Part shown: positions 4,574-62,733 of the stretch, in pieces | How the letters are laid out: every line of letters starts with the position of its first letter | Numbering within the stretch: the stretch's first letter is position 1 | Assembly: GCA_951406725.2 (NCBI GenBank) | Contig: OX597828.1 | Coordinates: forward strand, 5,146,001 to 5,210,000 | DNA length: 64,000 nt | Direction: 5' to 3' | DNA from: Octopus vulgaris | Lineage: Eukaryota | Made by a program: the position numbers and the translations under genes | The notes under the pieces: generated by a model | Seen by the model: the letters and a program-made list of their open reading frames with translations, nothing else | Told to the model about the DNA's origin: nothing | Database searches by the model: none

Positions 4574-5861
4574 TTGGCTCATCCCATAAATAATGCGGTT
4601 TTTTAAATTGCATGAGACAAAAAATCGGAGGGGGGACTGGATAAATTACCTTCTTTAACATGCTACAAAAGCAGGTAGTAATTATATCTTCTCTTTATTC
4701 TTAGTGCAAAGTTTGAAGATTGCAGTTCGATTTTAACAGTTATTTGTTTCAAAGCTATAATGGAAGTGAGAAAGGAGTATATTCGGCATATTTTGCTTTA
4801 TGAGTTCAATAAAGGCAACAACGCAACGGAAAGTGCGAGGAATATCAATGTAGTATATATGGGAATTGGACAATAAGCGTAAGCTAGTGTCAACGGTTGT
4901 TCCAGAAATTCCGACCGGGAAACTACAGCCTAGAAGATCAACCTCATTCTGGAAGATCTGTAGAGCTCGACGAGGACCTCTTGCAAACCCTATTAGAAGA
5001 AAATTTCATCGTAACTGTTGAGAAACTAGCAGAGGAGATTGAATTTAGCCATTCAACCATTCATCGATACGAGCGTGCCATCGGAGAAGTCAGCAAATTG
5101 GGTCAGTGGGTTACCCGCAAACGTCCCGAGACTAAACACATGCAGAGAATGAATGTCTGCCCTAATTCACTTTCATGTCTCACGAATGAAACATTTTTGG
5201 ACCGAAAGTGACTGGTGACGAGAAATTGGTTCTCTATAAAAATGTCAAGCGCCGAAAACAGTGGGTAGGGAAAAAGAGACAGTGGGTAAGCACACCCAGG
5301 TTAAAGAAGGTCTTCACCTACGTAAGGTGTTGATATCTGTTAGGTGGGATATGAAAGGTTTAGTCCACTTTGAACTTTTCAATCCAAACCAAAAGATAAC
5401 AAAGAATATCTACTGCGAACGCTTAAGTCAGCGCTAGAAGTAAAACAATCATCTTTGGCTTCAAGACGAAAAGTGATCTTCCATCAGAATAATGCTCAGC
5501 CACATACAGTGAGGAAAATAATCCAAAGGCTGGAGCAATTTGAGTGAGAAATGATGCCCCACTCATCCGTATTCGCCAGACGTTTCTCCATCGGATTATC
5601 ATTTATTCCGGAGTTTTCACAATCATTTGGATGGAAAAATATGAATTCTGTAGACGAAGTCAGAACAGAACTGGACGAGTATTTTTCGTTACGGACAAGT
5701 GATATTTTGGAAGGGGCGGGGGCCTTGCAAGTGTACCAGATAAATGGGAGAGCATTTTTAAAAATGGAGAGTATATTTTAGATTAAACAAGAACTTTGTT
5801 TATCTTAATTTGAAAAATAAAATAAATAAAAAAGAACAGCATCATTTATAGGATGAGCCAA
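4574..5861 (+). mobile_element. Full-length (1288 bp) mariner transposon, transposase inactivated
   Basis: TIRs TTGGCTCATCCCATAAATAATGC and GCATCATTTATAGGATGAGCCAA, with TA on both sides. ATG 4760 gives MEVRKEYIRHILLYEF; motifs VTGDEK, FHQNNAQPH and PYSPDVSPSDYHL lie across frameshifts and stops. Confidence 0.95.
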
Positions 5862-8081: not shown

Positions 8082-8645
8082 AAACCATAGATTCTAGTCT
8101 TGCCAAGCTGAAGGTGAATGATTCGCTCCCTTACTCACTATTTATCGGACACATTTTCTGTTGTTGACCAGTTGCAAAAGATGTTTTTCTCGGGTTAAAA
8201 TGTAGTAACATAGTTCTTTTTAGAACAGCCATGATATAGTGGAAAAAAAAGTTACCGTCTAGTAGCATTACTACTTATATCTCGTTTAGAGACTTTGTAA
8301 ATAGCTACTTTGCTCGTTAGGGGATCAGCGGCTGTCTGCTTCCTCTGTGTTTATATATTGTGGTTGACTGCCATCTGTAGTCGGTAGATATCCATTACCG
8401 ATGAAGCGTAAAGACCCAGAAACCATTGTCTACTGGTCTTGCAAATCTAGAGGGGAGTGATTTGCTCCTCTACTCATACACAAGCTGTGTGTCGTTGACC
8501 AGCTGGAAAAGACGATTTCCTGGGGTACAAATGTAGCAACATAGTTCTTTATAGAACCGCCATTTTATAGTGGCATAAAAACATTACCGTCTAGTATTGT
8601 TACTTATATCTCGTTTCAAGATTTTAGAACTAGCTACTTTTCTCT
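8082..8645 (+). repeat. Diverged tandem repeat (about 340 bp period) with hammerhead at the unit junction, Penelope terminal repeat-like
   Basis: 8095-8315 aligns with 8433-8645 (GTCTTGC, TTGACCAG, AAATGTAG.AACATAGTTCTTT, TTACCGTCTAGTA, TAGCTACTTT). HHR at 8392-8436: CCATTA-CCGATGA...GAAACCATTGTC-TACTGG. Confidence 0.7.
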
Positions 8646-8799: not shown

Positions 8800-9790
8800 T
8801 ATTATCCTTACAATAAGGTGATTAAAATCAAAATAAGCAACAAGAATATCCAGAGGTAATGCAGTACAATCGTTTCCAGTAACTCCATTTAATTGAACAA
8901 TGCAACCATTACATCAATTCAAATGCAGAACAATCCTTAGCTATATAAAGATATAGAATTAAATTAAATTAACACAGATGGATATATTACTATAATTTTA
9001 CATAAAACCTCCAAGAATTTAAGGAGATAGACAAAGAACATACTGTCTCCAATTCAGGTTAGGCGCTACTAAGGTATCAGGAAGCAAGACTCGTTATAAA
9101 TCTAGCTTGTCACTGTATTTTGGGGTCAGTTTTAATTTATAGTCTTGTTTATCAAATCTTTGTCTTTCAAATCTAAGGCCAAAGACCAAGGAGCAGTGTC
9201 TGTTAGGAAGGGTTTAAGGAAGTCAACAGAAATCCAATAGGTATCAAGATTAATTTGAAGCAATATAATGAGAATTAGTAAAGGAAATCTTAAAACAAGA
9301 TGTTAGCTGACAATTAAAGGGGGAAGCCACTAGCAGACCATTGATAACGATACAGGCGAAATTTTATCATGGGGTACCATAGTTAAATACTTTAAACAAT
9401 ATTGCCATATTGTATAAATTTAAAATTTAGGGTTATTCAGAAGGTTATTAAGAAGAATATCATAACAAAGGGATAAAATTTTTTGAATACTTTTGAGTAT
9501 ATACCAAATTTTAGCACAATAGGGGAAGGCAAAGAAATTACATAGAAATAGTTTAATATTTATACATATTATATACTGAAATACTAACTTATTAGATGGT
9601 ATCTGTGAAGATTGATCATTGGTATTCATACTTAGCTTCTATAAAACAACACCGGTATCCTCACTACTTAAAATAAACTGCTTAGATTATAATTTAATAG
9701 ATATTTAGTTAGCATGTTCCTTTGCCTCAGTACTCCTATATTAATTACCAATAGATACCAATGGTCAATATTCACAGATACAATCTAATA
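8800..9790 (-). mobile_element. Highly degraded Penelope-like RT remnant
   Basis: Broken minus-strand similarity to the G..MGSP..ANI region at 9300-9345. The 3' half of an HHR (GCTG...CAGCCGAAACGTT) lies adjacent at 9827-9856. Confidence 0.35.
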
Positions 9791-9865
9791 GGTTAGTATT
9801 TAAGTATATAATATGTTTGTTGTTAACACAACGTTTCGGCTGATATACCCTCCAGCGCCTTTTTC

Positions 9866-12390: not shown

Positions 12391-13583
12391 CACACAAACA
12401 CATACACACACACATATACGTAAATGCTGAACGAGTAAATGAGTGATCAACACCGCATTGGTGATTATATAATTTCTTTTGTGAAACACCGCAGGCACAC
12501 ACACGCTCACACACATATAAAGACACACGCATATATTTTTATACATATTTATATACAAAAGAACTTGGCTTTACTTCAGAGCGTTGAACAAAGAGAAAGA
12601 CACACACACACACATATTCATGGATATATATATTTCTATGTAAGTATATATATTATAAAGAGAGAGAAAGAGAGAGAGCTTGATAAATAGATAGATTTTC
12701 ATATAAATGCATGTCTGTATATTTGTATACATACTTTTGTATACATGAAAATATACGATTGACAATGAATAATTGAAAATTCTATTAGTATACATTTGAC
12801 GAAGTTATTTGAATAGACATTGTATCACATGATTCAAATATAAAAAGAATCATTATTTGTGATTTGTATATTATTGCAAACTTGTTGCGTATATTCGTTA
12901 TATCAAATATATGAAATGGTTCATCAAATTACCTCTGACTTCCACAAAATGTTGTTATGAGCGTTCCAAGTTTTAGCGAACAAAAATCGTTATCATAAAT
13001 GCCTACACTGTTTATAATATATATTTGAATACACGCGCACAATGCATCCACAAATAAAACCACTAAATTTAATAGCTATGAACTCACACGTGGCTTACCA
13101 ACAAAACTACCTCCCCACTTTGGTATCGAATACTTTACACCCTTTTTATCCGTACTTGTATTCTTAGATATACATACGCAGCTGAATTATGTTAGTCATC
13201 TTATGTTGAACTTTGAATAATTTTACAACTTTAGAATATAGAATGTTCATAAGAAATCAAAGAAACGCAAATGAAATGGTATATGACCCGTTCAAAGCCT
13301 ACTTACAAATGAATGTGTTAACATCACCGTATGTACTTATAAACTTTAGTAATTTGTCCTCACACTTCATCATTAATTAGCAGAAATAATTTTCTTCGTT
13401 GAACACACATTTACGTCAGTGCATTAACGTCAACACATATGATATTATACAAACACACACACCCGTACACACCCGCACGCACACACACACACATAGGTAT
13501 ATATACATATATAATGCTTACATATAAAGTCTCTCTTGTCCTTATATGTATGTATATATTATTATTATTATTATCATTATTAT

Positions 13584-14082
13584 TGAGTGAGAGAGCCATC
13601 AAAGTGACACTGGGGTAAAATATACGAAGCCCAATATACCCATCATGACTACCCGTCTGATAAGGGTACACCAGGCACATGCATCACAACCATATGTGCG
13701 CGACATGGTGATCTCATATCAAGATAAACAGCACATGACCTTGCAGGTGGCGCCCAGTTAGAATTTTCTTCAGGTTGAGTAGCCCATCCTGCTCAAAAGG
13801 TCCCTGATTAAGGGTTGTTTAAGGATGTTGAAAGAACCACCCATGTTTCCAAAGGTGAATTATTCAAACCCCAAAGAATCCCTCTCAACACATGGCTATG
13901 ATGCTCCCCCACTACTTCTGCTCGTGATCAGAGATGTACATATCGTCAGCCACTAAGGGACATGCTCAACTGGTTAAAGTCAAACAACTGACAAGCAAAT
14001 CTGTGGTATTGAGCAGAATATTTGCTGTAGCCCATCTTTTATACCAAGACAAAACAATGTACATGATAACACTTCCATGATA
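13584..14082. mobile_element. Interspersed repeat embedded in (ATT)n microsatellite (family C)
   Basis: Homologous to 33695-33790 and 35370-35812; flanked on both sides by ATT runs. Confidence 0.75.
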
Positions 14083-14092
14083 ACACTTATTA

Positions 14093-14141
<49 letters not shown>

Positions 14142-14194
14142 AAGTCTTATTATGCCTGACGAAACAAAAACACTGCATGAAAGTACAGTATGAA

Positions 14195-15260
14195 ACCAAT
14201 GATTTTTCATCTATCGCGTAGACTTGCAAGGCCCCTCTTCTAAAATTCCATGAATATGTGTGTGTGTGTGTCTTTCTCTTTGTTGAGCGCTCTGAAGTAA
14301 AGCCAAGTTCTTTTGTATATAAATATGTATAAAAATATATGCGTGTGTCTTTATATGTGTGTGTGTGCGCGTGAGTGTGTGTGTGTGCGTGAGTGTATGT
14401 GTGTGAGCGTGTGTGTGCCTGCGGTGTTTCACAAAAGTAATTTCACAAAAGTAATTCTCCAGTACTGTTCTGACCTCGTCTACAGGATTCATATTTTTTC
14501 CATCCAAATGATTTTGAAAACTGCGGAATAAATGACAATCAGACGGGGCAATGATACAATCAGATGGTGGGTGGGGCATCATTTCCCATTCAAGCTGCTC
14601 AAGCCTTTGGAATATCATCCACGATGTATTTGACCGAGAATTATCTTGATTGAAGAATAACTTTCTTTTGAAACCAAAAATTGTCGTTTTCCTTCTAACT
14701 CTGACCTAAGCCGCTCACGCTGCTCATAGTAGATCTGCTTTGTTACCTTTTGGTTTAGGCTTAAAAGTTAAGAGTGGACTAAACCTTTCATATCCCACCA
14801 AACACCTTACGTGCGTGAAGATCTTCTTTAGCCTGGGGTGCTTACCCACTGTCTCCTTTCCCTACACACTGTCCTTTCCCTACGCACGGTCCTTTCCCTA
14901 TCCACTGTCTTCAGCGCATGGCACTTTTGTAGACCATTTTTGAGACCATTTCTCGTTACCAGTCACTATTCGGTCCAAATAATGTTTATTCGTCAGACGT
15001 GACTGCAAAGTAGATTAGACATTCACTCTCTGCGCGCGATTAGTCTTGGAAAATTTGTGAGGAACCGTTGACCCAATTTGCTGTCCATGAATGGTTGAAT
15101 GACCAAATCCAATTGAATGACCAATTCTATGCTAGTTCCTCCACATATACGACAGGGTTCTGCTTGAGGAACTCATCGTTGAGCTCTACAGATTTTCCAG
15201 AACGAGAATCGTCTATTAGGCTATAGTTTCCGGCTCGGAATTTCTGGAACGAATGCAGGT
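14195..15260 (-). mobile_element. Degraded mariner copy related to 4574-5861
   Basis: Minus-strand peptides FQKFRAGNYSLIDDSRSGKSVEL, VTGNEKW and LEWEMMPHPP..IAPSDCHLFRSFQNHLDGK. Interrupted by an inverted local copy at 14247-14435. Confidence 0.9.
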
Positions 15261-17773: not shown

Positions 17774-18297
17774 ATCGTGACGTATATTTGCCCTTTGAAT
17801 ATGGTTAACCCGTAAGGGTGGATGCTACTGTAGTTTGTAGCCCCAGGAAGACACCTCCTCCAGCTGGCTATAGACATACTTTCTGTGGCCTATCAGTATT
17901 TGTGAAGGGAAGTCATCCTTCCCGTCTTCAACTTATGATACACACGGACTCGAGTTTCAAGATATTGACCTATCATCGGCGTGTGACAATCATAGTTGTC
18001 GACGAGAAGTGAGTTTCCCTCACAAATACAAATCCTGTTTCCAGTATCGATTGACACTGATATTGAAAAAGTGAAATCAAACAATGATAAAGCGAGTTAT
18101 AAACAGTAGCGGTAACACATCGTGACGTATATTTGCCATTTGAATATGGCTAACCCCTGAGGGTGGATGCTACTGTAGTTTTTAGCCCCAGGAAGACACC
18201 TCCTCCAGCTGGCTATAGACACACTTTCTGTGCCCTATCAGTATTTGTGAAGGCAAGTCATCCTTCCCGTCTTCAACTTATGATACACACGGACTCG
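17774..18297 (-). repeat. 1.5 tandem units (345 bp period) carrying a type I hammerhead
   Basis: 17774-17952 is nearly identical to 18119-18297. HHR on the minus strand at 17941-17985. Confidence 0.85.
17941..17985 (-). ncRNA. Minimal type I hammerhead ribozyme (U4C core, GUC site)
   Basis: CACACG-CCGATGA-T-AGG-TCAATA-TCT-T-GAAAC-TCGA-GTC-CGTGTG: perfect 6 bp stem I and palindromic stem III ACTCGAGT. Confidence 0.8.
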
Positions 18298-18712
18298 GAA
18301 GATTCTGGAAGGACTGGTACCAAACTTTGAAATAAAAAGCTATATCAGACTACGAACAGGATGTCACTGTGCTGTCCCCCACTATAACGACTGCTTCATC
18401 TCTTCAAGGACGATGTACTGCAATAGCTTGGGTTTAAAGCGCCCACAGCTGTTTAACTCTCTGCCGAAGTATCTGAGGAGCCTGCATGCAGTAGATGTAG
18501 ACGTTTCCAAACGTGAACTTGACCTCTGGCTCGCCGAGATCCCGGAGGAGCCAATATCTAAGCAAAAAACTCAAAAGAGGGCAGTAACTTCGAGCTCCAT
18601 CCTTCACCAAAAACCGCTCCGACAAAGGTGGAAAGTGGAAATATGATCACAATGGCGGTGCTCCAGCATGGCCAAAGTCATTGGACTTAAACATATAAAA
18701 GAATAAAAGAAT
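18298..18712 (+). mobile_element. 3' end of a CR1/L2-group LINE
   Basis: Peptides KILEGLVPN and PQLFNSLPKYLR...KRELDLWLAEIPEEP are typical of the ORF2 C-terminus. Tail GGCGGTGCTCCAGCATGGCC then (AAAGAATA) repeats. Confidence 0.7.
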
Positions 18713-33569: not shown

Positions 33570-33790
33570 TTGTGATCATCATCATTGTTATGATCATCAT
33601 CATGATAATCACCATCATTATCATCATCATCATCATCCTCATCATCACCATCGTCATCATCATCGTCGTCGTCGTCATTGCTTTTATTATTGACTGGGAG
33701 AGCAGTGCATGCCATCAAAATGACAATTTGGTGTCGAATAAAATATACGAAGCTCAGTATACCCATCATGAATACACGTCTGATAAGGGC
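33570..33790. repeat. (ATC)n microsatellite followed by truncated family C element
   Basis: ATC/GTC runs, then GAGAGCAGTGCATGCCATCAAAATGACA...GTCTGATAAGGG matching 13590-13667. Confidence 0.8.
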
Positions 33791-33990
33791 CGAGGTGAGC
33801 TGGCAGAATTGTTTGTACACCGGGCAAAATGCTAAGCGGCATTTCATGAGTCTTTACGTTATGTGGGCAAAATCCCCCAAGATCGACTTTGACTTTCATC
33901 CTTTCGGAGTGGACTAATTAAGTACGAATTATGTACGAAATAAGTACGAATTGTGCACTGGGATCGATATAATCCACTTACCCCGCACCC
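33790..33990 (+). mobile_element. SINE family B
   Basis: GGTGAGCTGGCAGAATTG...GTCGAC-like...CTTTCATCCTTTCGG. Confidence 0.8.
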
Positions 33991-34014
33991 AATTTCTAAC
34001 TATAGTATTATTTT

Positions 34015-35283
34015 TCTCCCTCATATTAATTTTTTCATCATTTGGAATTGTAAAATCAATTCTCTGACATTTTCTATTCTCTTTATCTAGTACTACTGAA
34101 TTGCGACTTCTAGCTTCTATTACTCTATCATTCTGAATATTAAAGCCCCACGACATCGTATATTTCTTACCGTCTGGTACTTTCCTAGGTTCATATTTAT
34201 ACCATTTATCAGAATATTCAAATCCTAATTTTCTACATAGCTCCCAGTGGTTTACTCTCTCTAGATTGTCATATTCTTTCTTGTATAATTTCTAGGCCGA
34301 CATGCTAAATTATCTTACTATATAAGTAACACTTTCCTCTTTTGATTTGCATAATTTACATTGGGAATCTACTTGGGTTTTGTCTATCTTGGCTTTTATC
34401 CAAGTAGTCCTTAATGGTTGATTTCGTACAGCTACTAACAGACTTTCTGTCTCCCTCTTCAGCTTTCCTTTCTGCAAACTTAACCATGTCTCGCTTTTAC
34501 AATTTTGATGCAACTATCCTTGGAAATGTACCATGCAACGCCTTCTCCTGCTAGTCAGATAATTTCTGTTCTTTTTTCTGGTTTTCAAGTCCGTCTGAGT
34601 TTTTGATATCCCTATGTCTTGCTGTGAATCTAGAAGCTTTTAATAAATTTTCTTCACTATTACCAACATACGAGTCTATATCAACTCTAGCTCCCTCTAC
34701 GCAGTCTTCTACTGATATTAACCCTCTTCCGCTTTCCTTTCAATGTAGGCATGATCTTTCTACTTCTGCCCTTGGATGGAGTCCTCCATTCATATTGAAT
34801 TCCTTCCTACTTCTATCTAGCTTTGCTATTTCAGTTTTTGTCCACCTACAGAAGCTGCTGAGCATCTAAGTAATGATACTGCCCGTGTCTTTACAACCTT
34901 CACTAGATTCGAACAATTTAACTTTGACTTCATTAGCTTCCTCACCTTTCTGATGTATTCGTTTTCAATTTTCGTTTTCATTTCTGTTGTCAGATTCTAA
35001 TACTCCTGTATACTCATAACTCTCTCCTCCTTTCAATGATTTTAATGTCTGGCTATCTGGTTATTGGACACCTTCACTGTTGACTACTTGTCCCCTTCTT
35101 ATGACTAATAATTCACGCTTATCTATGCCAAATTCTATGCCTATATCTTTGCTGAAGAGTCTTACAGTCTGTATTAAGGAATCTATCTCTTTTTCATTCT
35201 TACTAAAAAGCTGCAGATCATCCATGTAAAGTAAATGGTAAATTTTTCCATTACTATTTCTAAACTGATACCCTTCTTTTGCA
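34015..35283 (-). mobile_element. Dong/R4-like non-LTR retrotransposon relic (RT C-half, CCHC region, restriction-like endonuclease)
   Basis: HLLYMDDLQLF...IGIEFGIDK, LKRETESLLVA, CKLCKSKEESVTYI and IEAR...KCQRIDFTIP. The 5' junction abuts (TAA)n/(GAT)n. Confidence 0.85.
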
Positions 35284-35285
35284 TT

Positions 35286-35363
<78 letters not shown>

Positions 35364-35369
35364 CAAATA

Positions 35370-36103
<734 letters not shown>

Positions 36104-38439
36104 CACTAACCTTGCTCTTTTTTACCTGGGTAAAATATCGTTGTCTATGGCCCGGTTTAACAATTAAACTCTGTTGAGTTTATAAAAGATTAGAAAGGAT
36201 TGTTTTTCATGTTTTCATATTGCACGGAATTATTACTAAAAACCATTTGAATGTTTTCATTTATTCATCTTTTTTTTCATATTTATTGGAAAAAAATATT
36301 TTCAAAAACATCTTTCTCGCTAACCGTGATTCAATGCAACATATCGACTAGACAGGTTCCCGCAATGAACAATACATTTGCACAAGCAAAACAGAAAAAT
36401 GAAAACAGCAATTTTAAATGAAAATTCAGCCATTGAAAATATAATGATGTATCTGGTGTTTTTGACACATACAAGAGTTTAGTTAGAGAGTCACGCAACA
36501 GTGACAATGACAATGGCAAAACTCGCAACATAACTTTTCACTCACGCACTCTCATATGCCAAGTAAATCAGGGAGGTCTGAATGCAAGTAGCGTTCTTTT
36601 GGACATATAGTTTTGACAAAAATTGAATTGTAAAAACAGTTTTTTCAAGCTTGGTAAAAAATTAAGTCGACAGTCTTTCGCGCCGAAAGATTGGCCATAC
36701 GTTTTATGCGATTTTTAAAAATGAATTGACACAGATCCTTGTCTATTGAATAACAAATTTAACACTTCTTCATTTTCTACAAATATTCCTTATTCTTGCT
36801 TAACAACGTATCCATTCACACACACACAAACACACACACACGCACACACACACACACACACATACATAAAGTAAAGCATTCTGAAAATGCACATAAATTC
36901 GTCACTGTATTCTCAGTCGACACTGAAAGGGAATAAGATAAAAAAGCACAAACATAACTCAAATACCACATTGGGTTAATAGAACAAACACAACTTTGCA
37001 TACATAATACACTACATGTGTCTTTGACGATCACAGCCTGCCCAGACTCGAAATCTCTTCGATATATAAACAATACATGATGTGTAATAACATGTTCTCC
37101 GTATACCTCTCTTACACACTACTTGTCAACTCAACAAAGATACCAAAATTGAATGACCACTTGTATATGCAAGGGGTAATTTTTTCTTACCAAATTAAGC
37201 TTCAGTTAATACAGAGCCCGTCACCGCCTCAAGACTATGTGGAAACACGCAGACGCATACTCTACGCCAAATATTTTTATTAGAACAATATTTTGTAAAC
37301 AATGTATTTCTCAATCACTTAAAACATTAATAACCCTACTAGTTCTAAGTCCTGTACTGGAATGTCGGGAAGAACGAGCCGAGTTTACGTTCTTTTCGGG
37401 GCACCGAAAAAAATCAATAGGAATACAAACATTAGACTGAGGTTTGGAGACAATGCAATGCCTTGACTGGTACGTCGTATCCTGTACGATTTGTCACTAA
37501 GTGTCGAACTATAGGTAATGTTTTTGTCTGTTAAACACAGACTTGGTATAAACAAAGTCTTTCGGGCGAATACATTTATTACTTGTTCATAGCTAACCAG
37601 GACTTTCACAGAAAGAAGAAAAAGAAAGAATCTAGCCCTTTATCGAATAAAGTAGAACTATGGAATACGTATGTAATACGTATTGTAATATTAATATAAT
37701 AATCAATGTAGGGATTACAACTCCTTTGCAGCCAATGCAATCCTGAATGCTATGACCTATTATTCTTCTCCAACTCCAGTCACATAAGTTAGAATTACGA
37801 AAATTACTCAGGTTACTACACATCAATATATCATCTATCGTAAGTATATAAACCGGTTTACATCAACAACTTTGCATGTGAGAGATAAGATAATAAATAT
37901 CGGACTTCGATGTACAGTATTATTTGGTTAGATCAAATATCGTTATATATAATTTTACCATTCATTCACCTTGTCTTGACAACTTAGGCGCAAGAAGATA
38001 TTTTATTTCAGGTTGTTCCTTTCTGTTAGCAACTGATACATCAATATAATACTTAACACTCTATATAAAACTTGAAAGAGAGTCTTTAGATAAATATTGA
38101 TTCATCTTATTGGCACAAGACCAATCATCTGTAGACGAGTTATATATTGAAATCTGGATATTAAATTGTTAAAAGGTAAGGCAATTCATCATACGTTTTG
38201 AATTAAAAGTATAAGACACTGTAACTGGTTAAAGTATGCCTTGGTCCAGCAGTCTATCATTCTGTCATTCCTACATAGTAAAAATGGTTAATGATAAACT
38301 GCAGAATTGACAGGTGATACTCAAAATATATAGAGGAATTCCATTTATTTGGTACTACAGGTAGCATAAAATGTTAACCACACGTAAATTTCTATGAGGA
38401 TAAACGAATATCATCTTGATTACTTAATCTCGTATGCAA

Positions 38440-38827: not shown

Positions 38828-41128
38828 ATGTTTCTTTATTAGCCACACAGGGCTGCACACAGATAGAACAAATTACAAGGTAGAGCTTTTCTTTTGGGGG
38901 TAAAAAAAGGAGAGTGGTGGTTTTCGATCAAAAGGGATCGTAAAAGGAAAGAAAAAGGACAAAAAAAAGGGGAGGGGTTAAAAAAAGGGGGAGGGGAGAA
39001 AAAAAATGAATAATAGGGATCGTTATCACAGAAATGTCAATATGAAGTGTAAAGGGGAGGACAGGTGAGGTTTACCCGTGGAAAGAAAAGCCTACGGAAA
39101 AGACCACGGTAACCTCGGTCAATGAAGTCACATGTTATATTTTTTTTTTTTTTTTTTTTTTTTGCAAATAAGCAACTCTCTGTATTAATTTTTATGGTTC
39201 ATAGAATCATAGTCAAGGTGGCTTCGTTATTCATACGTGCCATCCTTGCTACATTCACCCATCTTTTTTTAAAACATTCACTAGACAAAACTTGCCTCTC
39301 TACTCTCACTTTCCTCTTCAAGTGATACTTGAAGAAGTTGATGAGAGATTGACCAGAGAGGAAAGTGTTTGTCTCTAATCCTTTCAGGCGCGTCCACCAG
39401 ATACATTCTTTCGCCATAGCCACAAGTATGATAAAAATAGCTCTTCCTTCCCGTTTGAAGGAAGGAGGCGTGACGATATTAACGATAGACTCGGCTGATA
39501 AACCGACACGTCCCACACGTGACAGCAGTCGTTCGACATAAGCCCACAGGTCGGAAATTGCTGGACACTGCACGATTGCGTGCAGAGCGGTTTCGTCGCT
39601 CTGACCGCATCTCGGGCAGGTCGGCCCCGTGTTTCTCGAGCCATGCCTATAGAGCTTATCCCGAACGGGTAGCGCTTCTCGGTAGCACCGCCAGGCCAGG
39701 GATCTCTGGAAGTTGTCCATAGGTCCCGGGCCGAAAGTCGTTTGAAACAGGCGGGTCAGGTATTCCTCGTCGACGCCCAGGTGTGCCCCGAGCTCGTCGT
39801 CGTACCTCCCCTCCACTAATCCCCTATAGAATGCTTTGGTTGTGTTGAAGTCACTCAAGGTCGACCCGGGACGGCAGAGTTGCTTGAGAGCAACGCGACA
39901 CTCGCGGTGCCAATCGCCCTTCCTCGGCCTCTTTTTGATCCACGACTGTAGTTCGGTCATGGAGACGAGTTGCGGGAATGCGTGCCTCACAAACGGCGAC
40001 CACACCTGTTCACCGTCGTCTACATAGAGCCGGAGATGTCGCAGTCTCAGCGCGTGTCTGCGCATCATCAACCACGGCATGCCCAGCCCTCCTTTTAACG
40101 GGTGTTGACAGCAAATGGATCGCCTGACCATCGGGACGCATCCTTTCCACAAGAAGCGGAAGAGAATGCGTTCTAGTTTGGTGATGGTAGGGTCGGGACA
40201 AGGTACGACGGTCAGGCGGTAGTAGATGATGGACGCGATGTACGCGTTCACCACCTCCGCCCGACCTTTTAGGGACAGTTTCCTCTCGGCCCATTGCTGG
40301 GCGAGAGTGACCACCCTACTCGTTATCTCGTTCCAGTTCTTCTCCATTTGGAGGTCCGGACCGAACCAGACCCCGAGCAACTCAACCGGGCCGTCTGTCC
40401 AGCGTCCCACGACGGAGGTACTGGTGGACGGCATGGGCTTGCTTCTCCAGGTGCCGAGCCGCAAGCCCACTGACTTTTCCCGGTTGATTTTTGCTCCTGT
40501 CACCGCTTCGTAGTCTTTCAGTGTCTCGCCGACCCGCTCGATGTGCTCGTGGCTTGACACTATGACGGTGACGTCGTCCGCGTATGCAGACACGCTCGTC
40601 CCGCATCCTAATTCTCGCGGGATGCCCCTCAGAGTCGCCAGCTTCCGCAGTAGTGGCTCAAGAGTCAATACGTATAGAAGCGCCGAGAGGGGGCATCCCT
40701 GACGGACCGAACGTGCAATGTCGAAGGGTCTCGATAGATGTCCATTTACGCGAATTACCGAACGGATGCCTCTGTACAAGGCAGCTATCCAGCCGCGGAA
40801 GACAGGACCGAAACCAGCCGCTCTCAGGACCGCCTCCAAGTATCCTACCCTATCAAAGGCTTTCGATTGATCCAAGTTGATCAGGACCCCACCCATGCCA
40901 GGTTTGTTAACTACCCTGTCTATCATGTAGCGCATCAGATGGAGGTTGTCATGGATGCTCCGGCCCGGCACAGCGCACGTTTGTGCGTTGTCGACCAGTT
41001 TCTCCATGACAAGCGCCAACCTCTTGGCTAACACCTTTGTCAAAATTTTCAGGTCTGCATTGAGCAGAGTGATTGGCCTAAAGTTATCTATAATGTTTCC
41101 CTTGTTTGGATCTTTCTTCAGCAGAGTT
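38828..41128 (-). mobile_element. Young 5'-truncated L1/Tx1-clade LINE inserted in a (GATA)n array
   Basis: GC- and CpG-rich open ORF2, about 370 bp 3' UTR ending AATAAAGAAACAT. Both ends join (TATC)n directly. Confidence 0.92.
39199..41043 (-). CDS. LINE ORF2 fragment: reverse transcriptase plus C-terminal zinc finger (endonuclease lost by truncation)
   Basis: 614 aa ORF with LDQSKAFDRV, VRQGCPLS, YADD, GGLG and CPRC...H....C. The frame continues upstream (NFRPITLLNADLKIL) to the junction near 41128, so there is no true start codon. Confidence 0.9.
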   Translation of the reverse strand: MTKVLAKRLALVMEKLVDNAQTCAVPGRSIHDNLHLMRYMIDRVVNKPGMGGVLINLDQSKAFDRVGYLEAVLRAAGFGPVFRGWIAALYRGIRSVIRVNGHLSRPFDIARSVRQGCPLSALLYVLTLEPLLRKLATLRGIPRELGCGTSVSAYADDVTVIVSSHEHIERVGETLKDYEAVTGAKINREKSVGLRLGTWRSKPMPSTSTSVVGRWTDGPVELLGVWFGPDLQMEKNWNEITSRVVTLAQQWAERKLSLKGRAEVVNAYIASIIYYRLTVVPCPDPTITKLERILFRFLWKGCVPMVRRSICCQHPLKGGLGMPWLMMRRHALRLRHLRLYVDDGEQVWSPFVRHAFPQLVSMTELQSWIKKRPRKGDWHRECRVALKQLCRPGSTLSDFNTTKAFYRGLVEGRYDDELGAHLGVDEEYLTRLFQTTFGPGPMDNFQRSLAWRCYREALPVRDKLYRHGSRNTGPTCPRCGQSDETALHAIVQCPAISDLWAYVERLLSRVGRVGLSAESIVNIVTPPSFKREGRAIFIILVAMAKECIWWTRLKGLETNTFLSGQSLINFFKYHLKRKVRVERQVLSSECFKKRWVNVARMARMNNEATLTMIL

Positions 41129-41130
41129 GG

Positions 41131-44657: not shown

Positions 44658-45047
44658 GATATGTATAAGTATGTACGTATTTCATTATATTATAAATCCG
44701 TGTCTCGAGTGAAAACTTATTCCTAAATAAGTATATCGAGAGTGGGTATGTGCTTTCAAATTCGACTAAAATATATCCATTATATTAACTCTACCCTTCT
44801 TGTAGATGTCTTGAAAGCATATATCTATATATGTATATATGATTATACTTACGAACACAGCCACCATACATATATATGTATATATACATTCATGTATAAT
44901 TACTTGTATATATGTGGTGCATATTTATATATATGCAGATATGTTTGGTTTTCGCTGAAACGAAAATAATTGCAGCGTGGAAGGTTTTTGTAAGCCATTT
45001 AAGAAACACACAAAAGCCGTTCGATTCACTTCAACATTTAAGTTTAA

Positions 45048-45097
45048 TTTGTCAAAATATTTTCGTCGCTAAAATCCGCGACCTGTTCACTGACAAA
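45048..45097 (-). ncRNA. Hammerhead-like motif with G3-C8 core (left arm)
   Basis: Reverse complement of 45738-45787. Confidence 0.65.
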
Positions 45098-45737
45098 AAT
45101 CCGTGCTGCATCTGAGAAAGTAACAGTTAGTTCGTCATATATATGTACGTATGTATGTGTGTATGTATGCATACACATATGTATGCATGTATGTATGTAT
45201 GTATGTATGTATGTATGTATGTATGTATGTATGCATGTACATACATACGCCTGTGTATGTATGTATGTATGTATGTATGTATGTATGTATGTATGTATGT
45301 ATGTATGTATGTATATATGTATGTGTGTGTATATGCACGCACATACACACTATAAACATAAAGCTATAAACCTGTAGTGATGGATAGATGTAGAGTGATA
45401 TTATTGTGATGAGTGGTCACTCTACATCTATCCATCACTACAGGTTTATAGCTTTATGTTTATAGTGTGTATGTGCGTGCATATACACACACATACATAT
45501 ATACATACATACATACATACATACATACATGCATACATACATATATACATACATACATACATACATGCATACACAAGCGTATGTACGTACATGCATACAT
45601 ACATACATACATACATACATACATACATACATACATACATACATACATGCATACATATGTGTATGCATACATACACACATACATACGTACATATATATGA
45701 CGAACTAACTGTTACTTTCTCAGATGCAGCACGGATT

Positions 45738-45787
45738 TTTGTCAGTGAACAGGTCGCGGATTTTAGCGACGAAAATATTTTGACAAA
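45738..45787 (+). ncRNA. Hammerhead-like motif with G3-C8 core (right arm)
   Basis: TTTGTCA-GTGAACA-G-GTCGC-GGATTTTA-GCGAC-GAA-AATATT-T-TGACAAA: 7 bp stem I, 5 bp stem II, palindromic stem III. Confidence 0.65.
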
Positions 45788-45864
45788 TTAAACTTAAATG
45801 TTGAAGTGAATCGAACGGCTTTTGTGTGTTTCTTAAATGGCTTACAAACACCTTCCACGCTGCA

Positions 45865-45901
<37 letters not shown>

Positions 45902-47716: not shown

Positions 47717-48599
47717 CGTATAGATAAGTTGCTGACAGAGGAAACGAACAGTTGTGGAGACAGTAGAGGCAAATACAGATTTATGGGTTTTTTAGAAACG
47801 GTAGATATTTTAATCTTAGTAAAGTTTTAAACTAGAAAACAGGCGCTTGAAAATGTATACGTGTGCTCATAGAAATTCTCTGACCACAAATATCACATTT
47901 TCGTAATACATTATTTCTACGAATTATCCCACTACAAATACATATTAAAAACACATAGAGACGCATATATATAGATGGATAGAATATATTGATTTCAAAT
48001 GTTGAAACAAGTCCACTAATTTCGGGGTAGGAGATAAATGAATCACATCAACCCCAGTAAAGATGGAGCTGTCTTGCGTATTTTTGCCTTGTGCTTTCGG
48101 TACGTATTATAGCTACCTGATTATGCATTCGTTAGCGATCCTTCTGACGAGCTACATATACCATTTTCATTTATTTGGTCATTAATAGCGTAACTCGAGT
48201 ATAAGCTTAACTAATTTTTTATTCACTCTAGTGTTTATTAGCAGCATGCGTTAAGGGTTAGAGTTGGGTTCATTTTTTCATGGTTTGGGTTTAACTGCCC
48301 TTTTTAGCATGCAAGAGGTCCTGTCAAGAGCCTTCTCTCTGTCTATAAATCTTTATACACACTTATTTATAAAACTATTTTGTCTTATGACTTATATTAA
48401 GCATGCAAACCACTGGTAATAAATCATTTTAATTTTTTACCCCCAAACTTATATAAATATTTAAATTTCTCCCCCGCTTCTAATTCTTAGCAGGCCGTCT
48501 TTCTCTCCGCCTCCTCCGCTGAATACAACCGCAGAAGGCAGCAGCAGCAGCGACAACGGCGGTCATCAGTCAAATTTCACACTTATATATATATATATA

Positions 48600-49208
48600 C
48601 TAGATTACCCGTGGCCCGTTAGGTCACATATATTTCAAGGGACCTTGAAAAACTCGGAAACCTGTGGTCCGATTTACGCGAAACTTGTTTTATTCTGTTT
48701 GTATTCACATTTCAATGGTACTTTACATCCAAAGTCCCTTCCCATTGTGTGCCGGTTTGGCTATTTATAATGGTACCTTAAACAACCACGTATCTCGGTA
48801 ACTCTTGCTTGGATTCGCGTGAAACTTGCTTTATTCCATTTGTATTCACAATGATACCTTAGTTTCAAAGTATGCACGTGTTTGGCTCTATTCAATTACA
48901 GTCAAGCACGCATATAAGCAAATACACCAGCAGGTAGTCATAAAGATACCTGAAAATGCTGCGTAACTCGAGAACCCATGGTTCCGATTTACGCGAAACT
49001 TGTCTTATTCTGCTTGTATTCCCATTTCAGGAGCGTCTTACTTTCAGAATATTTTAGCACTTTGCGTCGCTTTGGCTGTATTAACTTACAGACAAGCACG
49101 CACCCAAGCAAGCTCGCAAACAAAGCTCTCCAAGTGTTCCCAGTAAAGAGTAATAACTCCAATAATTCCAATAACTCCAGACAAGCACGCAAGCAAGCAA
49201 TCTCTGAC

Positions 49209-49225
<17 letters not shown>
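48600..49225 (-). mobile_element. Non-autonomous Helitron-like element
   Basis: Minus strand ends GTGACCTAACGGGCCAC (hairpin) GGGTAATCTAG then T. (GCTT)n near the 5' end; three internal repeats GATT..CG.GAAACTTG..TTATTC at about 48670, 48812 and 48985. Confidence 0.65.
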
Positions 49226-49239
<14 letters not shown>

Positions 49240-49523
49240 ATTTCAACAATTGAGGGTAAAATTAATTAATTATTAATCAATTTCACCAAGTGTTCAGTAT
49301 GCAAAGGGACCATTTAAGGCGAATTCAAATTATTACATTATATAAAAGGGCTTAGTAAAATAAATTACTTTGCCGCATACTGAACTCATTAGAAATAGCA
49401 GCTAAAAAACTTTTTTAAAGCTATTTCTAATACTTAAAGAAAATCTCTCTCATTTAGTGTTTGCTTAACTCAACTCACAAAAGTTTGGGGGTAAGGACAT
49501 CAAAAAATCAAATGCAAAGGTTA

Positions 49524-49580
49524 TTTGAGAACGTACGTTTCAAGATTAGTCAATACGACACTTCTATCATCAGCTCAGAA
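49524..49580 (-). ncRNA. Type I hammerhead ribozyme, copy 1
   Basis: TGAG-CTGATGA-TAGAAGTGTCGTATTGACTAATCTT-GAAAC-GTAC-GTT-CTCA; stem III palindrome ACGTACGT. Confidence 0.8.
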
Positions 49581-50084
49581 ACTCCTTGGTTTGGATTTGA
49601 AAACACTGAAAGTAAGAACATACCCTTTCGGCTTCTCATCGCTTTCGAAGATCTGCTCGTAACTAACAGTGCCTACAAACTCAAATAAGCAAGCGAAGAA
49701 TTTCTGTTCTCCCCTTTCCACCAGCGTGGGTTAAAATCATCAAACACTATGCTTATTTCGGTAAAATCCGAAGCATTAATTAGAGGTAGATTAATTATAA
49801 TTTCAACAATTGAGGGTAAAATTAATTAATTATTAATCAATTTCACCAAGTGTTCAGTATGCAAAGGGACCATTTAAGGCGAATTCAAATTATTACATTA
49901 TATAAAAGGGCTTAGTAAAATAAATTACTTTGCCGCATACTGAACTCATTAGAAATAGCAGCTAAAAAACTTTTTTAAAAGCTATTTCTAATACTTAAAG
50001 AAAATCTCTCTCATTTAGTGTTTCCTTAACTCAACTCACAAAAGTTTGGGGGTAAGGACATCAAAAAATCAAATGCAAAGGTTA

Positions 50085-50141
50085 TTTGAGAACGTACGTT
50101 TCAAGATTAGTCAATACGACACTTCTATCATCAGCTCAGAA
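50085..50141 (-). ncRNA. Type I hammerhead ribozyme, copy 2
   Basis: Same sequence as copy 1. Confidence 0.8.
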
Positions 50142-50550
50142 ACTCCTTGGTTTGGATTTGAAAACACTGAAAGTAAGAACATACCCTTCAGTATGCGGCA
50201 AAGTAATTTATTTTACTAAGCCCTTTTATATAATGTAATAATTTGAATTCGCCTTAAATGGTCCCTTTGCATACTGAACACTTGGTGAAATTGATTAATA
50301 ATTAATTAATTTTACCCTCAATTGTTGAAATTATAATTAATCTACCTCTAATTAATGCTTCGGATTTTACCGAAATAAGCATAGTGTTTGATGATTTTAA
50401 CCCACGCTGGTGGAAAGGGGAGAACAGAAATTCTTCGCTTGCTTATTTGAGTTTGTAGGCACTGTTAGTTACGAGCAGATCTTCGAAAGCGATGAGAAGC
50501 CGAAAGGGTATGTTCTTACTTTCAGTGTTTTCAAATCCAAACCAAGGAGT

Positions 50551-50607
50551 TTCTGAGCTGATGATAGAAGTGTCGTATTGACTAATCTTGAAACGTACGT
50601 TCTCAAA
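50551..50607 (+). ncRNA. Type I hammerhead ribozyme, copy 3 (inverted arm)
   Basis: Same sequence on the plus strand. Confidence 0.8.
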
Positions 50608-50765
50608 TAACCTTTGCATTTGATTTTTTGATGTCCTTACCCCCAAACTTTTGTGAGTTGAGTTAAGCAAACACTAAATGAGAGAGATTTTCTTTAAGTA
50701 TTAGAAATAGCTTTAAAAAAGTTTTTTAGCTGCTATTTCTAATGAGTTCAGTATGCGGCAAAGTA

Positions 50766-50850
<85 letters not shown>

Positions 50851-51009
50851 GCTCCTTTTCATTTTCATCTTCTCTAGACAGTTTCCAGTTTCCCTGTATC
50901 CGATGAAGAGCCATGTCGAAAACTCATTTCTGTTGATATTTTTCTAATTCTATCTAAACTTTCACTGAGCGTCAATCTAATATATTGGCTGTAAACGTGT
51001 CTAATTGAA

Positions 51010-52358
51010 TGAGTGTGTCCAGAAAAGTACAGTGCTTGCGTTGATGGTGACTGGAAGGACAACACTTATAATGAAAGATAGAAGAAAGGGGAATATTGTG
51101 GGAAACTACCGTCCCATACCATGCCTAAACATAATCTGGAAGATACACAGTGGAATATGTGCGTCTAAGACATACCTTCCTGGAACAGGATGAAATACTA
51201 CCAAGATAACAAAAAGGATGTAGGAAGAGTTCTTAGAGTACTAAGGATCACTTGGTCATCGATAAAATGTTTTGAGGCATTGTTATAAACATCATACGAA
51301 CATGTCTATGGTTTGGTTTGACTTTAAGAAGCCATATGATATGATGCCTCATTCTTGGATCGTTGAATGCCTGCACAATGTTTGGTGTTGCTGAAAACAT
51401 CACGGATTTTCTGATATATAGCATGAAATAGTGGAAAACCAAATTGTACTTAAGTAATGTATTCCTTTGAGAAGTTAATATTAAAATGGTAATCTTCCAA
51501 GGTAACTCGTTTTCTCTGTTACTTTTTTGTAATTGCACTAATACCCATAACGATGACACTTAGAAAAGTTAAGATGGGTTACCGATGTTGTATGAAAGGC
51601 CCATCATTGAACTGCTTGATATTCCTTAGCCAAAAACAGTCCAGATATGTGGTAGAGAGATCGGTATGGAATTTGAGATTAGCAAATGCTCAGTACTTAA
51701 TATGAAAAGAGGGAAGAAAGCATCCTGCATAAGATTACGGTTACCATCAGGAGAGACCATGGTTGAACCAGACGGTAGTGTGTATAGATATTTAGGGATT
51801 TTGGAGCTACACAGAGAAATGAAAGTCAAGGTCAGCGAGGCGTATAAAAAAAGTGAAAATGATGTTGAAATCCAACCTAAATGCCAAATGGCATTACTGC
51901 AATGAATATCTGGGCAGTTATGGAGGTCAGATAGGAAATATCAACACTAGATGGGAGGAAGAGAAAGTTGATGACGCTGCATGGGGCGCTACACTCTAAA
52001 GCAAACGTAAACAGATTGTATATGAAAGGAAATAATGGTGGCAGGGGACCAATTAGTATAGACCATTGTATAAGGAACGAAAGGTGAACGCTTGCCGACT
52101 ATTTGATAAATAGTGATGAAAATCTGCGGCAATATGCCGCGAAAGATATAGGTGTAAATGCAGATGAAATGATTGGCAAGGAAGAGTTTAACCAAAGAGC
52201 TGAATAGAAGAGAAAAGACGACCTTCTTGAAATGAGAATGCATTGACAGTTTGAAAGGAATACACAGGACGTTAAGGATAATACAACATCGTGGGTATGG
52301 CTTGAGCGAGGTGATTTGAAGCGTACCACTGAAAGCCTGATCATTGCTGTACAAGATG
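51010..52358 (+). mobile_element. Second Dong/R4-like LINE RT relic
   Basis: GRTTLIMKDRRKGNIVGNYRPIPCLNIIWK, GIFQG-like IFQGNSFSLLLF, IGMEFEISKC, YRYLGILE and WLERGDLKRTTESLIIAVQD. Confidence 0.85.
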
Positions 52359-59864: not shown

Positions 59865-59918
<54 letters not shown>

Positions 59919-60167
59919 CTAATAAGGGTGAAAAATTAGATATTAATTTAATAATAGCATCAATTTAACACCAAGTGGTTTAGCGCATAAAAACCAGGGA
60001 TACAATAAAAAATCATACTTAAATATAAGAGAGTCACCACTATATGGTCGACTCTAGCGCTAAAAATAGATCGGCTATAGTATTAGCCATTAAAAATTGT
60101 TTCCAAGGAGAATTAAGACAACATTTAACGTAAACGAGGCAAGTGAAAAACAACGAAAATATAGATT

Positions 60168-60244
60168 AACTCTGGACAATTGTTTCGCTATTAATGTAAT
60201 ATGCAATTTTACTTACACAACATCTATAGTTCATCAGCAGAATT
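60168..60244 (-). ncRNA. Type I hammerhead ribozyme with long stem II (left arm)
   Basis: Reverse complement of 60500-60576. Confidence 0.8.
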
Positions 60245-60499
60245 TGTCTAAAATACAATTTATTAAATCGCACGCTAAATTTCAACACAACGTCAAACAC
60301 AACGTCAATTTTTCACCCTTATTTGTAATTTTAATTATACTGCAATAAATATTTTATGCAGTATTCGTTTCCGGAAGTCTTATCGTAGTTGTGGCGGAGG
60401 AATTTGAATCATGACTGCCAGTACAATCGATTAAACCGTACGTGTGTTTGACGTTGTGTTGAAATTTAGCGTGTGATTTAATAAATTGTATTTCAGACA

Positions 60500-60576
60500 A
60501 ATTCTGCTGATGAACTATAGATGTTGTGTAAGTAAAATTGCATATTACATTAATAGCGAAACAATTGTCCAGAGTT
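60500..60576 (+). ncRNA. Type I hammerhead ribozyme with long stem II (right arm)
   Basis: AATTCTG-CTGATGA-A-CTAT...ATAG-C-GAAAC-AATT-GTC-CAGAGTT; stem III palindrome ACAATTGT, GUC site. Confidence 0.8.
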
Positions 60577-60724
60577 AATCTATATTTTCGTTGTTTTTCA
60601 CTTGCCTCGTTTACGTTAAATGTTGTGTTAATTCTCCTTGGAAACAATTTTTTTAGTGGCTAATACCATAGCGGATCTATTTTTAGCGCTAGAGTCGATC
60701 ATATAGTGGTCACTCTCTTATATT

Positions 60725-60783
<59 letters not shown>

Positions 60784-62479: not shown

Positions 62480-62733
62480 ATATGGCCATAAAATCAGCTA
62501 TCATATCGACTAAGGTTTTAACTTCGAGTCACGAATGTTAGATCCTAAACTAGGTGAGTATATATTTTATCCACAAGCCTGGATGATCGTAAACGAGGTC
62601 AGAATACATTTCGTCCACCAGAATGGTAGATGAAATACATTCTGACCAAGTTTAAGATCTAACATTAATGAATCGAAATTCGAACCCTGTAGTTATGTTA
62701 GGGTCAACCTGTTAATGGATTTTATAGCCATGT
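62480..62733. mobile_element. Fold-back MITE-like element
   Basis: Nested inverted pairs ATGGCCATAAAATC/GATTTTATAGCCAT, AATGTTAGATCCTAAACT/AGTTTAAGATCTAACATT and GGTCAGAAT/ATTCTGACC. Confidence 0.65.

Follow-up and report, generated by a model that had tools for sequence, protein, structure and literature searches.

Layout of the locus

The window analysed here is a stretch of 64,000 nucleotides from Octopus vulgaris (contig OX597828.1, positions 5,146,001 to 5,210,000 of the forward strand), and all coordinates below are positions within it. Between two TA runs, it contains a repeat unit of 560 nt, a partial second unit in the same orientation and an inverted arm. The sense strand of unit A was set by the orientation of its hammerhead motif, and its GC content is 33%. 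The features are as follows.

49220-49239, no strand: left target run, (TA)10, with a 4-nt overlap with the unit end
49236-49795, minus strand: unit A, a complete 560-nt repeat unit without an open reading frame (ORF)
49236-49357, minus strand: one-sided 3' extension (tail) of 122 nt, found at the left end only and missing from the outer end of the inverted arm
49526-49577, minus strand: type I hammerhead 1, core from 49573 to U17 at 49530, predicted cut between 49530 and 49529
49796-50188, minus strand: unit B, a 5'-truncated second unit of 393 nt
50087-50138, minus strand: type I hammerhead 2, core from 50134 to U17 at 50091, inside the 242-nt spacer between the inverted arms
50187-50188, no strand: head-to-head junction of the 5'-truncated ends, with a 2-nt TT microhomology and no filler
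50187-50773, plus strand: inverted arm, 5'-truncated, 587 nt (one unit plus 27 nt)
50554-50605, plus strand: type I hammerhead 3, core start at 50558
50773-50846, no strand: right target run, (TA)37

The tandem amounts to 1.7 units and thus offers a single pair of hammerheads on the same strand, whose cores (50134 and 49573, minus strand) are spaced by 561 nt. Unit B differs from unit A in two places over 393 nt (an extra A at 49977, and G49463 versus C50024), both private to unit B. The inverted arm is the exact reverse complement of 49358-49944 (587/587), that is, a contiguous substring of the direct arm; it spans the A/B junction (49795/49796) and has the unit A allele at both diagnostic sites. 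An initial annotation of this DNA had described such a tandem-plus-inverted layout, with three identical hammerheads, those on the same strand about 560 nt apart, and with an inverted arm that runs over the unit junction and shares the diagnostic bases of the first copy. Our measurements agree with it on each of these points, and an 81-nt stretch bearing the hammerhead is identical in all three copies. The right end that it gave, 50773, is also ours; its left end, 49237, is 49236 here, with an uncertainty of about 4 nt that arises from the match between the end of the unit and the TA run. The same overlap hides any target-site duplication. No further copy of the 560-nt unit was found elsewhere within the 64-kb window.

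When the ribozyme is taken as sense, both outer ends of the element are 3' ends and both lie inside TA runs, 294 nt (left) and 172 nt (right) past the predicted cut. By arithmetic, the 5' ends fall at monomer positions 463 and 146. Neither is at the cut site, which is passed intact in three places; thus, a cleaved linear monomer is ruled out as the template. The arms show no difference over 587 nt (95% upper bound, 0.5%) and units B and A show two over 393 nt. Judged by these sequences, the insertion is young compared with its neighbours, a 345-nt tandem (95.5% identity) and element D (95.9%), both described below, which sustains the earlier view of a very recent insertion, although the identity of the arms could be inflated by conversion between them or by polishing.

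Directly to the left of the target TA run, nested and diverged direct repeats of 57-106 nt (73-83% alike) occupy 48600-49210. They are probably an older non-autonomous element, the end of which has what we take to be a Helitron-like look.

Hammerhead motifs in the element and in the window

The three hammerheads all have a 4-bp stem I, an intact core (CUGAUGA and GAAA) and a GUU cleavage triplet; stem II begins, at its base, with a U.U mismatch and then 3 bp, and stem III comprises 2 bp with a palindromic GUAC loop. The features of type I are all present, namely C3-A9, G12-A15.1, U16.1 and H17 of the core, and three helices in register. The mismatch (U10.1.U11.1) is described as a natural hammerhead variant (PMC3088659), and GUU is listed among the active cleavage sites (PMC3138052). 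A 37-nt pattern of the core occurs exactly three times in the window, but never in 100 shuffles. With a full type I descriptor, there were four matches in the window, compared with a mean of 0.057 in 300 shuffles; elements C and D, listed below, escaped it, because it allowed no more than 40 nt for stem II and required C3-G8. A widened descriptor gave nine matches, eight of them with a palindromic helix III (shuffle means, 0.14 and 0.02, respectively). The match at 36305 is non-palindromic and was taken as chance, given the shuffle mean of 0.14.

The hammerhead model of Rfam did not match the element, either at the gathering threshold or at E values up to 10, and at the gathering threshold Rfam had no match in the window, so that three other hammerhead elements were missed as well. 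Eight weak Rfam matches at 48500-51500 (CRISPR repeat, miRNA, snoRNA and histone stem-loop) were put down to chance similarity with an AT-rich hairpin and with TA runs. The ribozymes are therefore predicted from the descriptor, covariation and published motifs of Penelope-like elements (PLEs), without support from Rfam. Over three motifs of the window, 25 of 27 cells are paired and six of nine pairs are changed on both sides; part of this result is circular, as the descriptor that selected two of the three motifs in the alignment requires the stems. The active hammerhead fold lies 4.8-8.9 kcal/mol above the minimum free energy (MFE) fold, and the 345-nt family is similar (7.7 kcal/mol); folding energy was rejected as a test of ribozyme activity, because it penalises the 345-nt motif alike. 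The upstream hairpins were inspected by eye for a second ribozyme or a SECIS-like motif, an idea that was then dropped, and the widened descriptor found none there. For an axolotl retrozyme with the U.U mismatch, cleavage is reported to be weak in the monomer and stronger in the dimer (PMC7229834). The predicted cleavage in the octopus element would probably be weak and dimeric through the palindromic helix III, or aided by protein.

The matches of the widened descriptor belong to four elements, the 560-nt element and three others. These others, and a relative of one of them, are as follows.

8082-8644, plus strand: older relative of the 345-nt family (score 80, compared with 35 +/- 7 in 200 shuffles)
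17777-18298, minus strand: 345-nt partial tandem of 1.5 copies that are 95.5% identical; the 3' end lies in (TA)n
about 44934-45867, hammerhead cores at 45090-45055 (minus strand) and 45745-45780 (plus strand): element C, inverted head-to-head, in (TA)n
59917-60730, hammerhead cores at 60237-60175 (minus strand) and 60507-60569 (plus strand): element D, inverted, in (TA)n

The units of the four elements are mutually unalignable. Comparison of the 560-nt unit with those of the other hammerhead elements gave local scores of 38, 81 and 38 (shuffle means, 38, 68 and 39), and homology to them was rejected as not significant. All seven 3' ends of the four elements lie within 5 nt of a TA run of at least four units, a zone that makes up 4% of the window, although one of the seven (the long end of element C) is defined by the TA run itself. 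In element C, the outer arms are identical at 169 of 170 positions (99.4%), and both arms contain a minimal hammerhead, made up of a 7-bp stem I, a 5-bp stem II, a palindromic helix III and U17, in which the core has G3...C8 instead of C3...G8. In the hammerhead literature that we consulted (PMC11167929; PMC4209133; PMC3088659), U3-A8 is given as the natural swap and G3-C8 appears only as an engineered one; thus, the predicted core of element C is possibly an unreported natural variant. The arms of element D are identical at 280 of 292 positions (95.9%), and its hammerhead has a long stem-loop II, a palindromic AAUU and GUC. Because its right arm starts with the last 23 nt of its tail, a permuted unit of about 500 nt is implied. 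In the hammerhead of the 345-nt tandem, position 4 is a C, U.U forms the base of stem II, and there are a palindromic UCGA and GUC; the 3' end of this tandem is 170 nt past the predicted cut, and its 5' end falls in the second copy, about 6 nt upstream of the predicted cut there. The older relative has a period of about 339 nt, copies that are 75% alike, and a degenerate hammerhead at 8398, also with C at position 4. Taken together, these elements suggest that hammerhead repeats are dense in octopod DNA and are missed by Rfam.

Two further observations concern similar structures. A degenerate hammerhead-like core to the right of (TA)37, at 50900-50935 (plus strand), failed both descriptors. 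Imperfect palindromes of 200-260 nt, with 71% arm identity, lie at 9564-9816 and 62498-62701, and no hammerhead was found in them.

Class and insertion of the element

The longest stop-to-stop frame within the element is 76 aa, and that on the sense strand is 51 aa. The six internal frames of at least 55 aa had no match in Pfam. Of the sense frames, the one of 51 aa was compared with proteins of 91-2000 aa, and no relative was found for it. In the window, Pfam found no GIY-YIG domain or PLE reverse transcriptase (RT) among 250 frames (249 non-repetitive frames of at least 55 aa and one long ORF); its matches were mariner remnants, one ORF for a LINE RT, a small RT fragment, and matches below the threshold. 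An ORF for a telomerase-like RT and GIY-YIG between the repeats, as in an autonomous PLE, is absent. The linear unit folds with an MFE of -144.1 kcal/mol (z = -4.59; 0 of 100 shuffles were equally stable), and the circular monomer with z = -4.9 compared with 60 shuffles.

The coding remains elsewhere in the window are of other kinds. A frame of about 640 aa at 39199-41130 (minus strand) has RVT_1 and zf-RVT domains of the LINE type and starts at an (ATAG)n array; the best match of its RT is from Argonauta hians (66%). Two decayed mariner copies (4682-5686 and 14447-15250) are about 69% alike, and the first has matches to HTH_48 and Transposase_1. Broken non-LTR RT-like fragments lie near (TTA)n and (CAT)n arrays at 33690-35440, 13557-14153 and 51000-51900; their frames had no match in Pfam, and from their motifs we presume them to be of the R4/Dong type.

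The element thus has type I hammerheads in consecutive units (unit B is partial, yet the whole ribozyme is present in it), no coding capacity, a low GC content and a monomer that is predicted to be highly self-paired, and we regard it as a non-LTR retrozyme, that is, an ORF-less derivative of a PLE. The class, architecture and ribozyme type have all been published already. The initial annotation likewise proposed a retrozyme-like unit, and the ORF-less head-to-tail repeat with type I hammerheads agrees with this. However, it set a PLE repeat against a retrozyme as opposing explanations. Li, Clavereau and Pollet (2026, bioRxiv 10.64898/2026.07.22.740005) argue that animal retrozymes are PLE derivatives that lack autonomy, and thus the two are one class.

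Like the animal non-LTR retrozymes (PMC7229834; bioRxiv 10.64898/2026.07.22.740005), the element consists of an ORF-less head-to-tail unit with one type I hammerhead each, a GC content below 50%, a highly self-paired monomer and a short palindromic helix III. It shares U.U at the base of stem II with axolotl HHR_Amex2, and its 560 nt falls within the range of unit sizes in the preprint (51-972 bp). It differs from them in that circles of 170-400 nt were shown for animal retrozymes, whereas the octopus element is a larger candidate with only 1.7 units. Plant LTR retrozymes are also non-coding and flanked by hammerheads, with a proposed circular RNA intermediate. However, these have a type III ribozyme, true LTRs, PBS/PPT and a 4-bp duplication, whereas the element has a type I ribozyme with an open helix I in a tandem-plus-inverted arrangement. 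The non-autonomous Chlamys PLEs, such as MRC1 (PMC8557442), are non-coding PLE derivatives too, with pseudo-LTRs, head-to-tail copies and microsatellite targets, but they are green-algal, mostly lack canonical hammerheads, and have 3' ends resembling those of their autonomous partners.

A partial tandem, an adjoining inverted 5'-truncated copy, a one-sided tail of 30-40 nt and a bias toward microsatellites are hallmarks of PLE insertions (PMC8557442; PMC3846280). The tandem with its adjoining inverted copy is present at the locus, and the target is (TA)n or AT-rich at both ends. The one-sided tail measures 122 nt in this element, compared with about 100 nt for element D and about 35 nt for element C. 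Such an anatomy supports the reverse-transcribed origin put forward in the initial annotation, and the arms of 953 and 587 nt over the unit junction likewise support its claim of a template longer than one unit. The insertions of Penelope and Poseidon (Arkhipova et al. 2013, PMC3846280; Frangieh et al. 2024, PMC11167929) resemble the element in having two direct repeats with an adjoining head-to-head inverted repeat, an optional tail at one end, a microhomology junction and two internal start sites. They differ in the shorter tail and in having an ORF start inside the ribozyme; moreover, the target-site duplication of the octopus element is hidden by (TA)n and there is no palindrome at its junction. 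The integration signature of inversion, tail and (TA)n target is also seen in PLE clades without canonical hammerheads (PMC8557442).

We therefore consider, with a probability of about 0.8, that the element is a recent insertion of a non-autonomous 560-nt hammerhead repeat that was mobilised in trans by an endonuclease-positive, (TA)n-targeting PLE. Our best guess for the partner would be an element of the Hydra clade. According to our own count from the table in PMC8557442, U.U flanks stem II in 14 of 25 Hydra families, U17 occurs in 10 of 25, and both occur in 8 of 25. The same source reports that almost all Hydra families insert in (TA)n, that one family is from Octopus bimaculoides, and that one has an attached inverted 5'-truncated copy. 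The Hydra-clade PLEs (Hydra-1_Obim and Penelope-13_HM; Craig et al. 2021, PMC8557442) resemble the element in target and in a hammerhead near the 3' end, and differ from it in carrying an RT/GIY-YIG ORF; the element has a longer loop II and the 122-nt tail. A comparison by eye of the unit with the 3' end of Hydra-1_Obim revealed no likeness, and a motif search, as distinct from an alignment, did not find three short motifs of the unit in the supplement of PMC8557442. Since no autonomous partner was found in the window and Hydra-1_Obim looks unlike the unit by eye, the partner is inferred from the ribozyme type and the target only. Neptune and Naiad elements are also tied to microsatellite targets, and cephalopod Naiads are described as long inactive. 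In O. vulgaris, 336 recently active Penelope-like insertions have been reported (PMC13282606).

In the mechanism that we propose, a tandem donor locus would be transcribed into multimeric RNA, and the PLE protein would nick both strands of a (TA)n run. Reverse transcription would begin at two internal positions of the RNA, 294 and 172 nt past the cut, which are separated by 122 nt, and cDNAs of 953 and 587 nt would be copied through uncut or religated ribozyme sites; alternatively, the second arm could be produced by fold-back copying of the first cDNA. The two truncated ends would then be joined at TT. Twin priming of the L1 type was rejected, because the L1 model predicts arms without overlap, whereas the inverted arm here lies wholly within the direct arm. 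In line with the proposed steps, when the PLE protein of the anole was purified, both strands of AT-rich DNA were nicked and extended by it. It starts at two positions within the RNA, which set the limits of the tail, and it uses uncleaved RNA, with no need for the ribozyme to cut (PMC11167929).

Three other explanations of the locus have to be weighed. The 560-nt units could be the pseudo-LTRs at the 3' end of a truncated autonomous PLE and never have been mobile alone, and short truncated PLE insertions with hammerheads on opposite strands, 100-700 bp apart, have indeed been described (PMC4209133). However, the sequence upstream of unit A, in the sense direction, is the 3' end of the same unit and not an ORF, and the coding remnant that we looked for in the unit was not found, so that such an origin is very unlikely. 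We think it equally improbable that a single or tandem unit was inserted first and that the inverted arm arose later, by an inverted duplication at the DNA level during repair at (TA)n. The perfect containment of the arm in the direct arm and the 2 nt of microhomology at its junction would suit this explanation. Nevertheless, no flanking DNA is inverted together with the element, the same outward inversion and one-sided tail recur in two unrelated hammerhead elements of the window, and such inversions are published for PLEs (PMC8557442; PMC3846280). An assembly or library artefact, such as a fold-back read or a collapsed repeat, has to be considered for a perfect 587-nt inversion between microsatellites, the more so because PLE structures of this form are known to trouble assemblers (PMC8557442). 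Even so, we hardly believe in it: the flanks differ on either side, there is no N in the window, and the inversion is confined to the element. Furthermore, elements C and D have the same form at 99.4% and 95.9% arm identity, which a read artefact would not produce, and the recurrence of the inversion marks it as a signature of integration.

The template and what the locus may mean

If the 560-nt repeat was mobilised by a PLE as proposed, the template may have been an uncleaved linear multimer, toward which we lean, or a circular RNA of 560 nt, formed by cleavage at two hammerheads and ligation and then copied by rolling reverse transcription. The latter would leave the class of the element unchanged, and we regard it as possible but clearly the less probable of the two. 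The intact passage of the cut site suits a circle as well, since it excludes only the cleaved linear monomer, and the circular monomer folds well. Circles were shown for the retrozymes of coral, mussel and axolotl, including the axolotl ribozyme with the U.U mismatch (PMC7229834). Moreover, circles or rolling reverse transcription were proposed for PLEs in 2014 (PMC4209133), and element D likewise has a permuted unit.

However, a single circle predicts identical copies, and both variants are in unit B, which would occur with P = 0.065 under random later mutation (0.34 for any one copy). This gives a weak lean to a linear donor, although the homopolymer indel of unit B could be a sequencing error. 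The initial annotation took the shared bases of the first copy as support for a circle; since a circle would make all copies alike, the position of the variants does not bear this out. It also described the arms as longer than a unit and permuted. They are longer than a unit, but the inverted arm is contained in the direct arm, so that the arms are not independently permuted, and one uncleaved dimer transcript, or fold-back copying of the cDNA, explains both. A circular template is thus not established, as any uncleaved tandem transcript would do. Furthermore, for the anole PLE, unprocessed RNA was reported as the main substrate, with no reads ending at the cut site (PMC11167929); eight of nine predicted Xenopus retrozyme dimers did not cleave in vitro and one did (bioRxiv 10.64898/2026.07.22.740005). 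The published animal circles, of about 170-400 nt (PMC7229834), are smaller than 560 nt, although genomic units reach 972 bp (bioRxiv 10.64898/2026.07.22.740005).

In a bolder reading, the locus would directly record how a (TA)n-targeting PLE, having primed both target strands from two internal sites separated by about 120 nt, copied a circular RNA of 560 nt by rolling reverse transcription. We hold this to be doubtful. If it were true, octopod genomes would hold several unrelated, recently active and unannotated families of hammerhead circles, four of them within 64 kb and one with a natural G3-C8 swap in its core. The circles of animal retrozymes would then be tied mechanistically to PLE integration, and the locus would offer a near-identical, fresh substrate for tests of a circle against a linear multimer.

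Judged by titles and the beginnings of abstracts, none of the papers listed in a literature search deals with an octopus Penelope hammerhead element, and the words ribozyme and retrozyme are absent from the main text of a 2026 repeat annotation of Octopus vulgaris. The text of the retrozyme preprint leaves inverted arms and tails undiscussed, and the insertion of animal retrozymes has so far been inferred from their co-occurrence with PLEs and from sequence likeness (bioRxiv 10.64898/2026.07.22.740005). Of interest at this locus are the length of the tail, the fact that an ORF-less unit bears PLE scars, and how densely such elements occur. Because the locus is young and has two allele markers, the question of the template is testable through the donor locus. 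An ORF-less hammerhead repeat that bears the scars of PLE integration, together with two elements in the window that are alike in this respect, provides modest but direct support for the mobilisation of animal retrozymes by PLEs.
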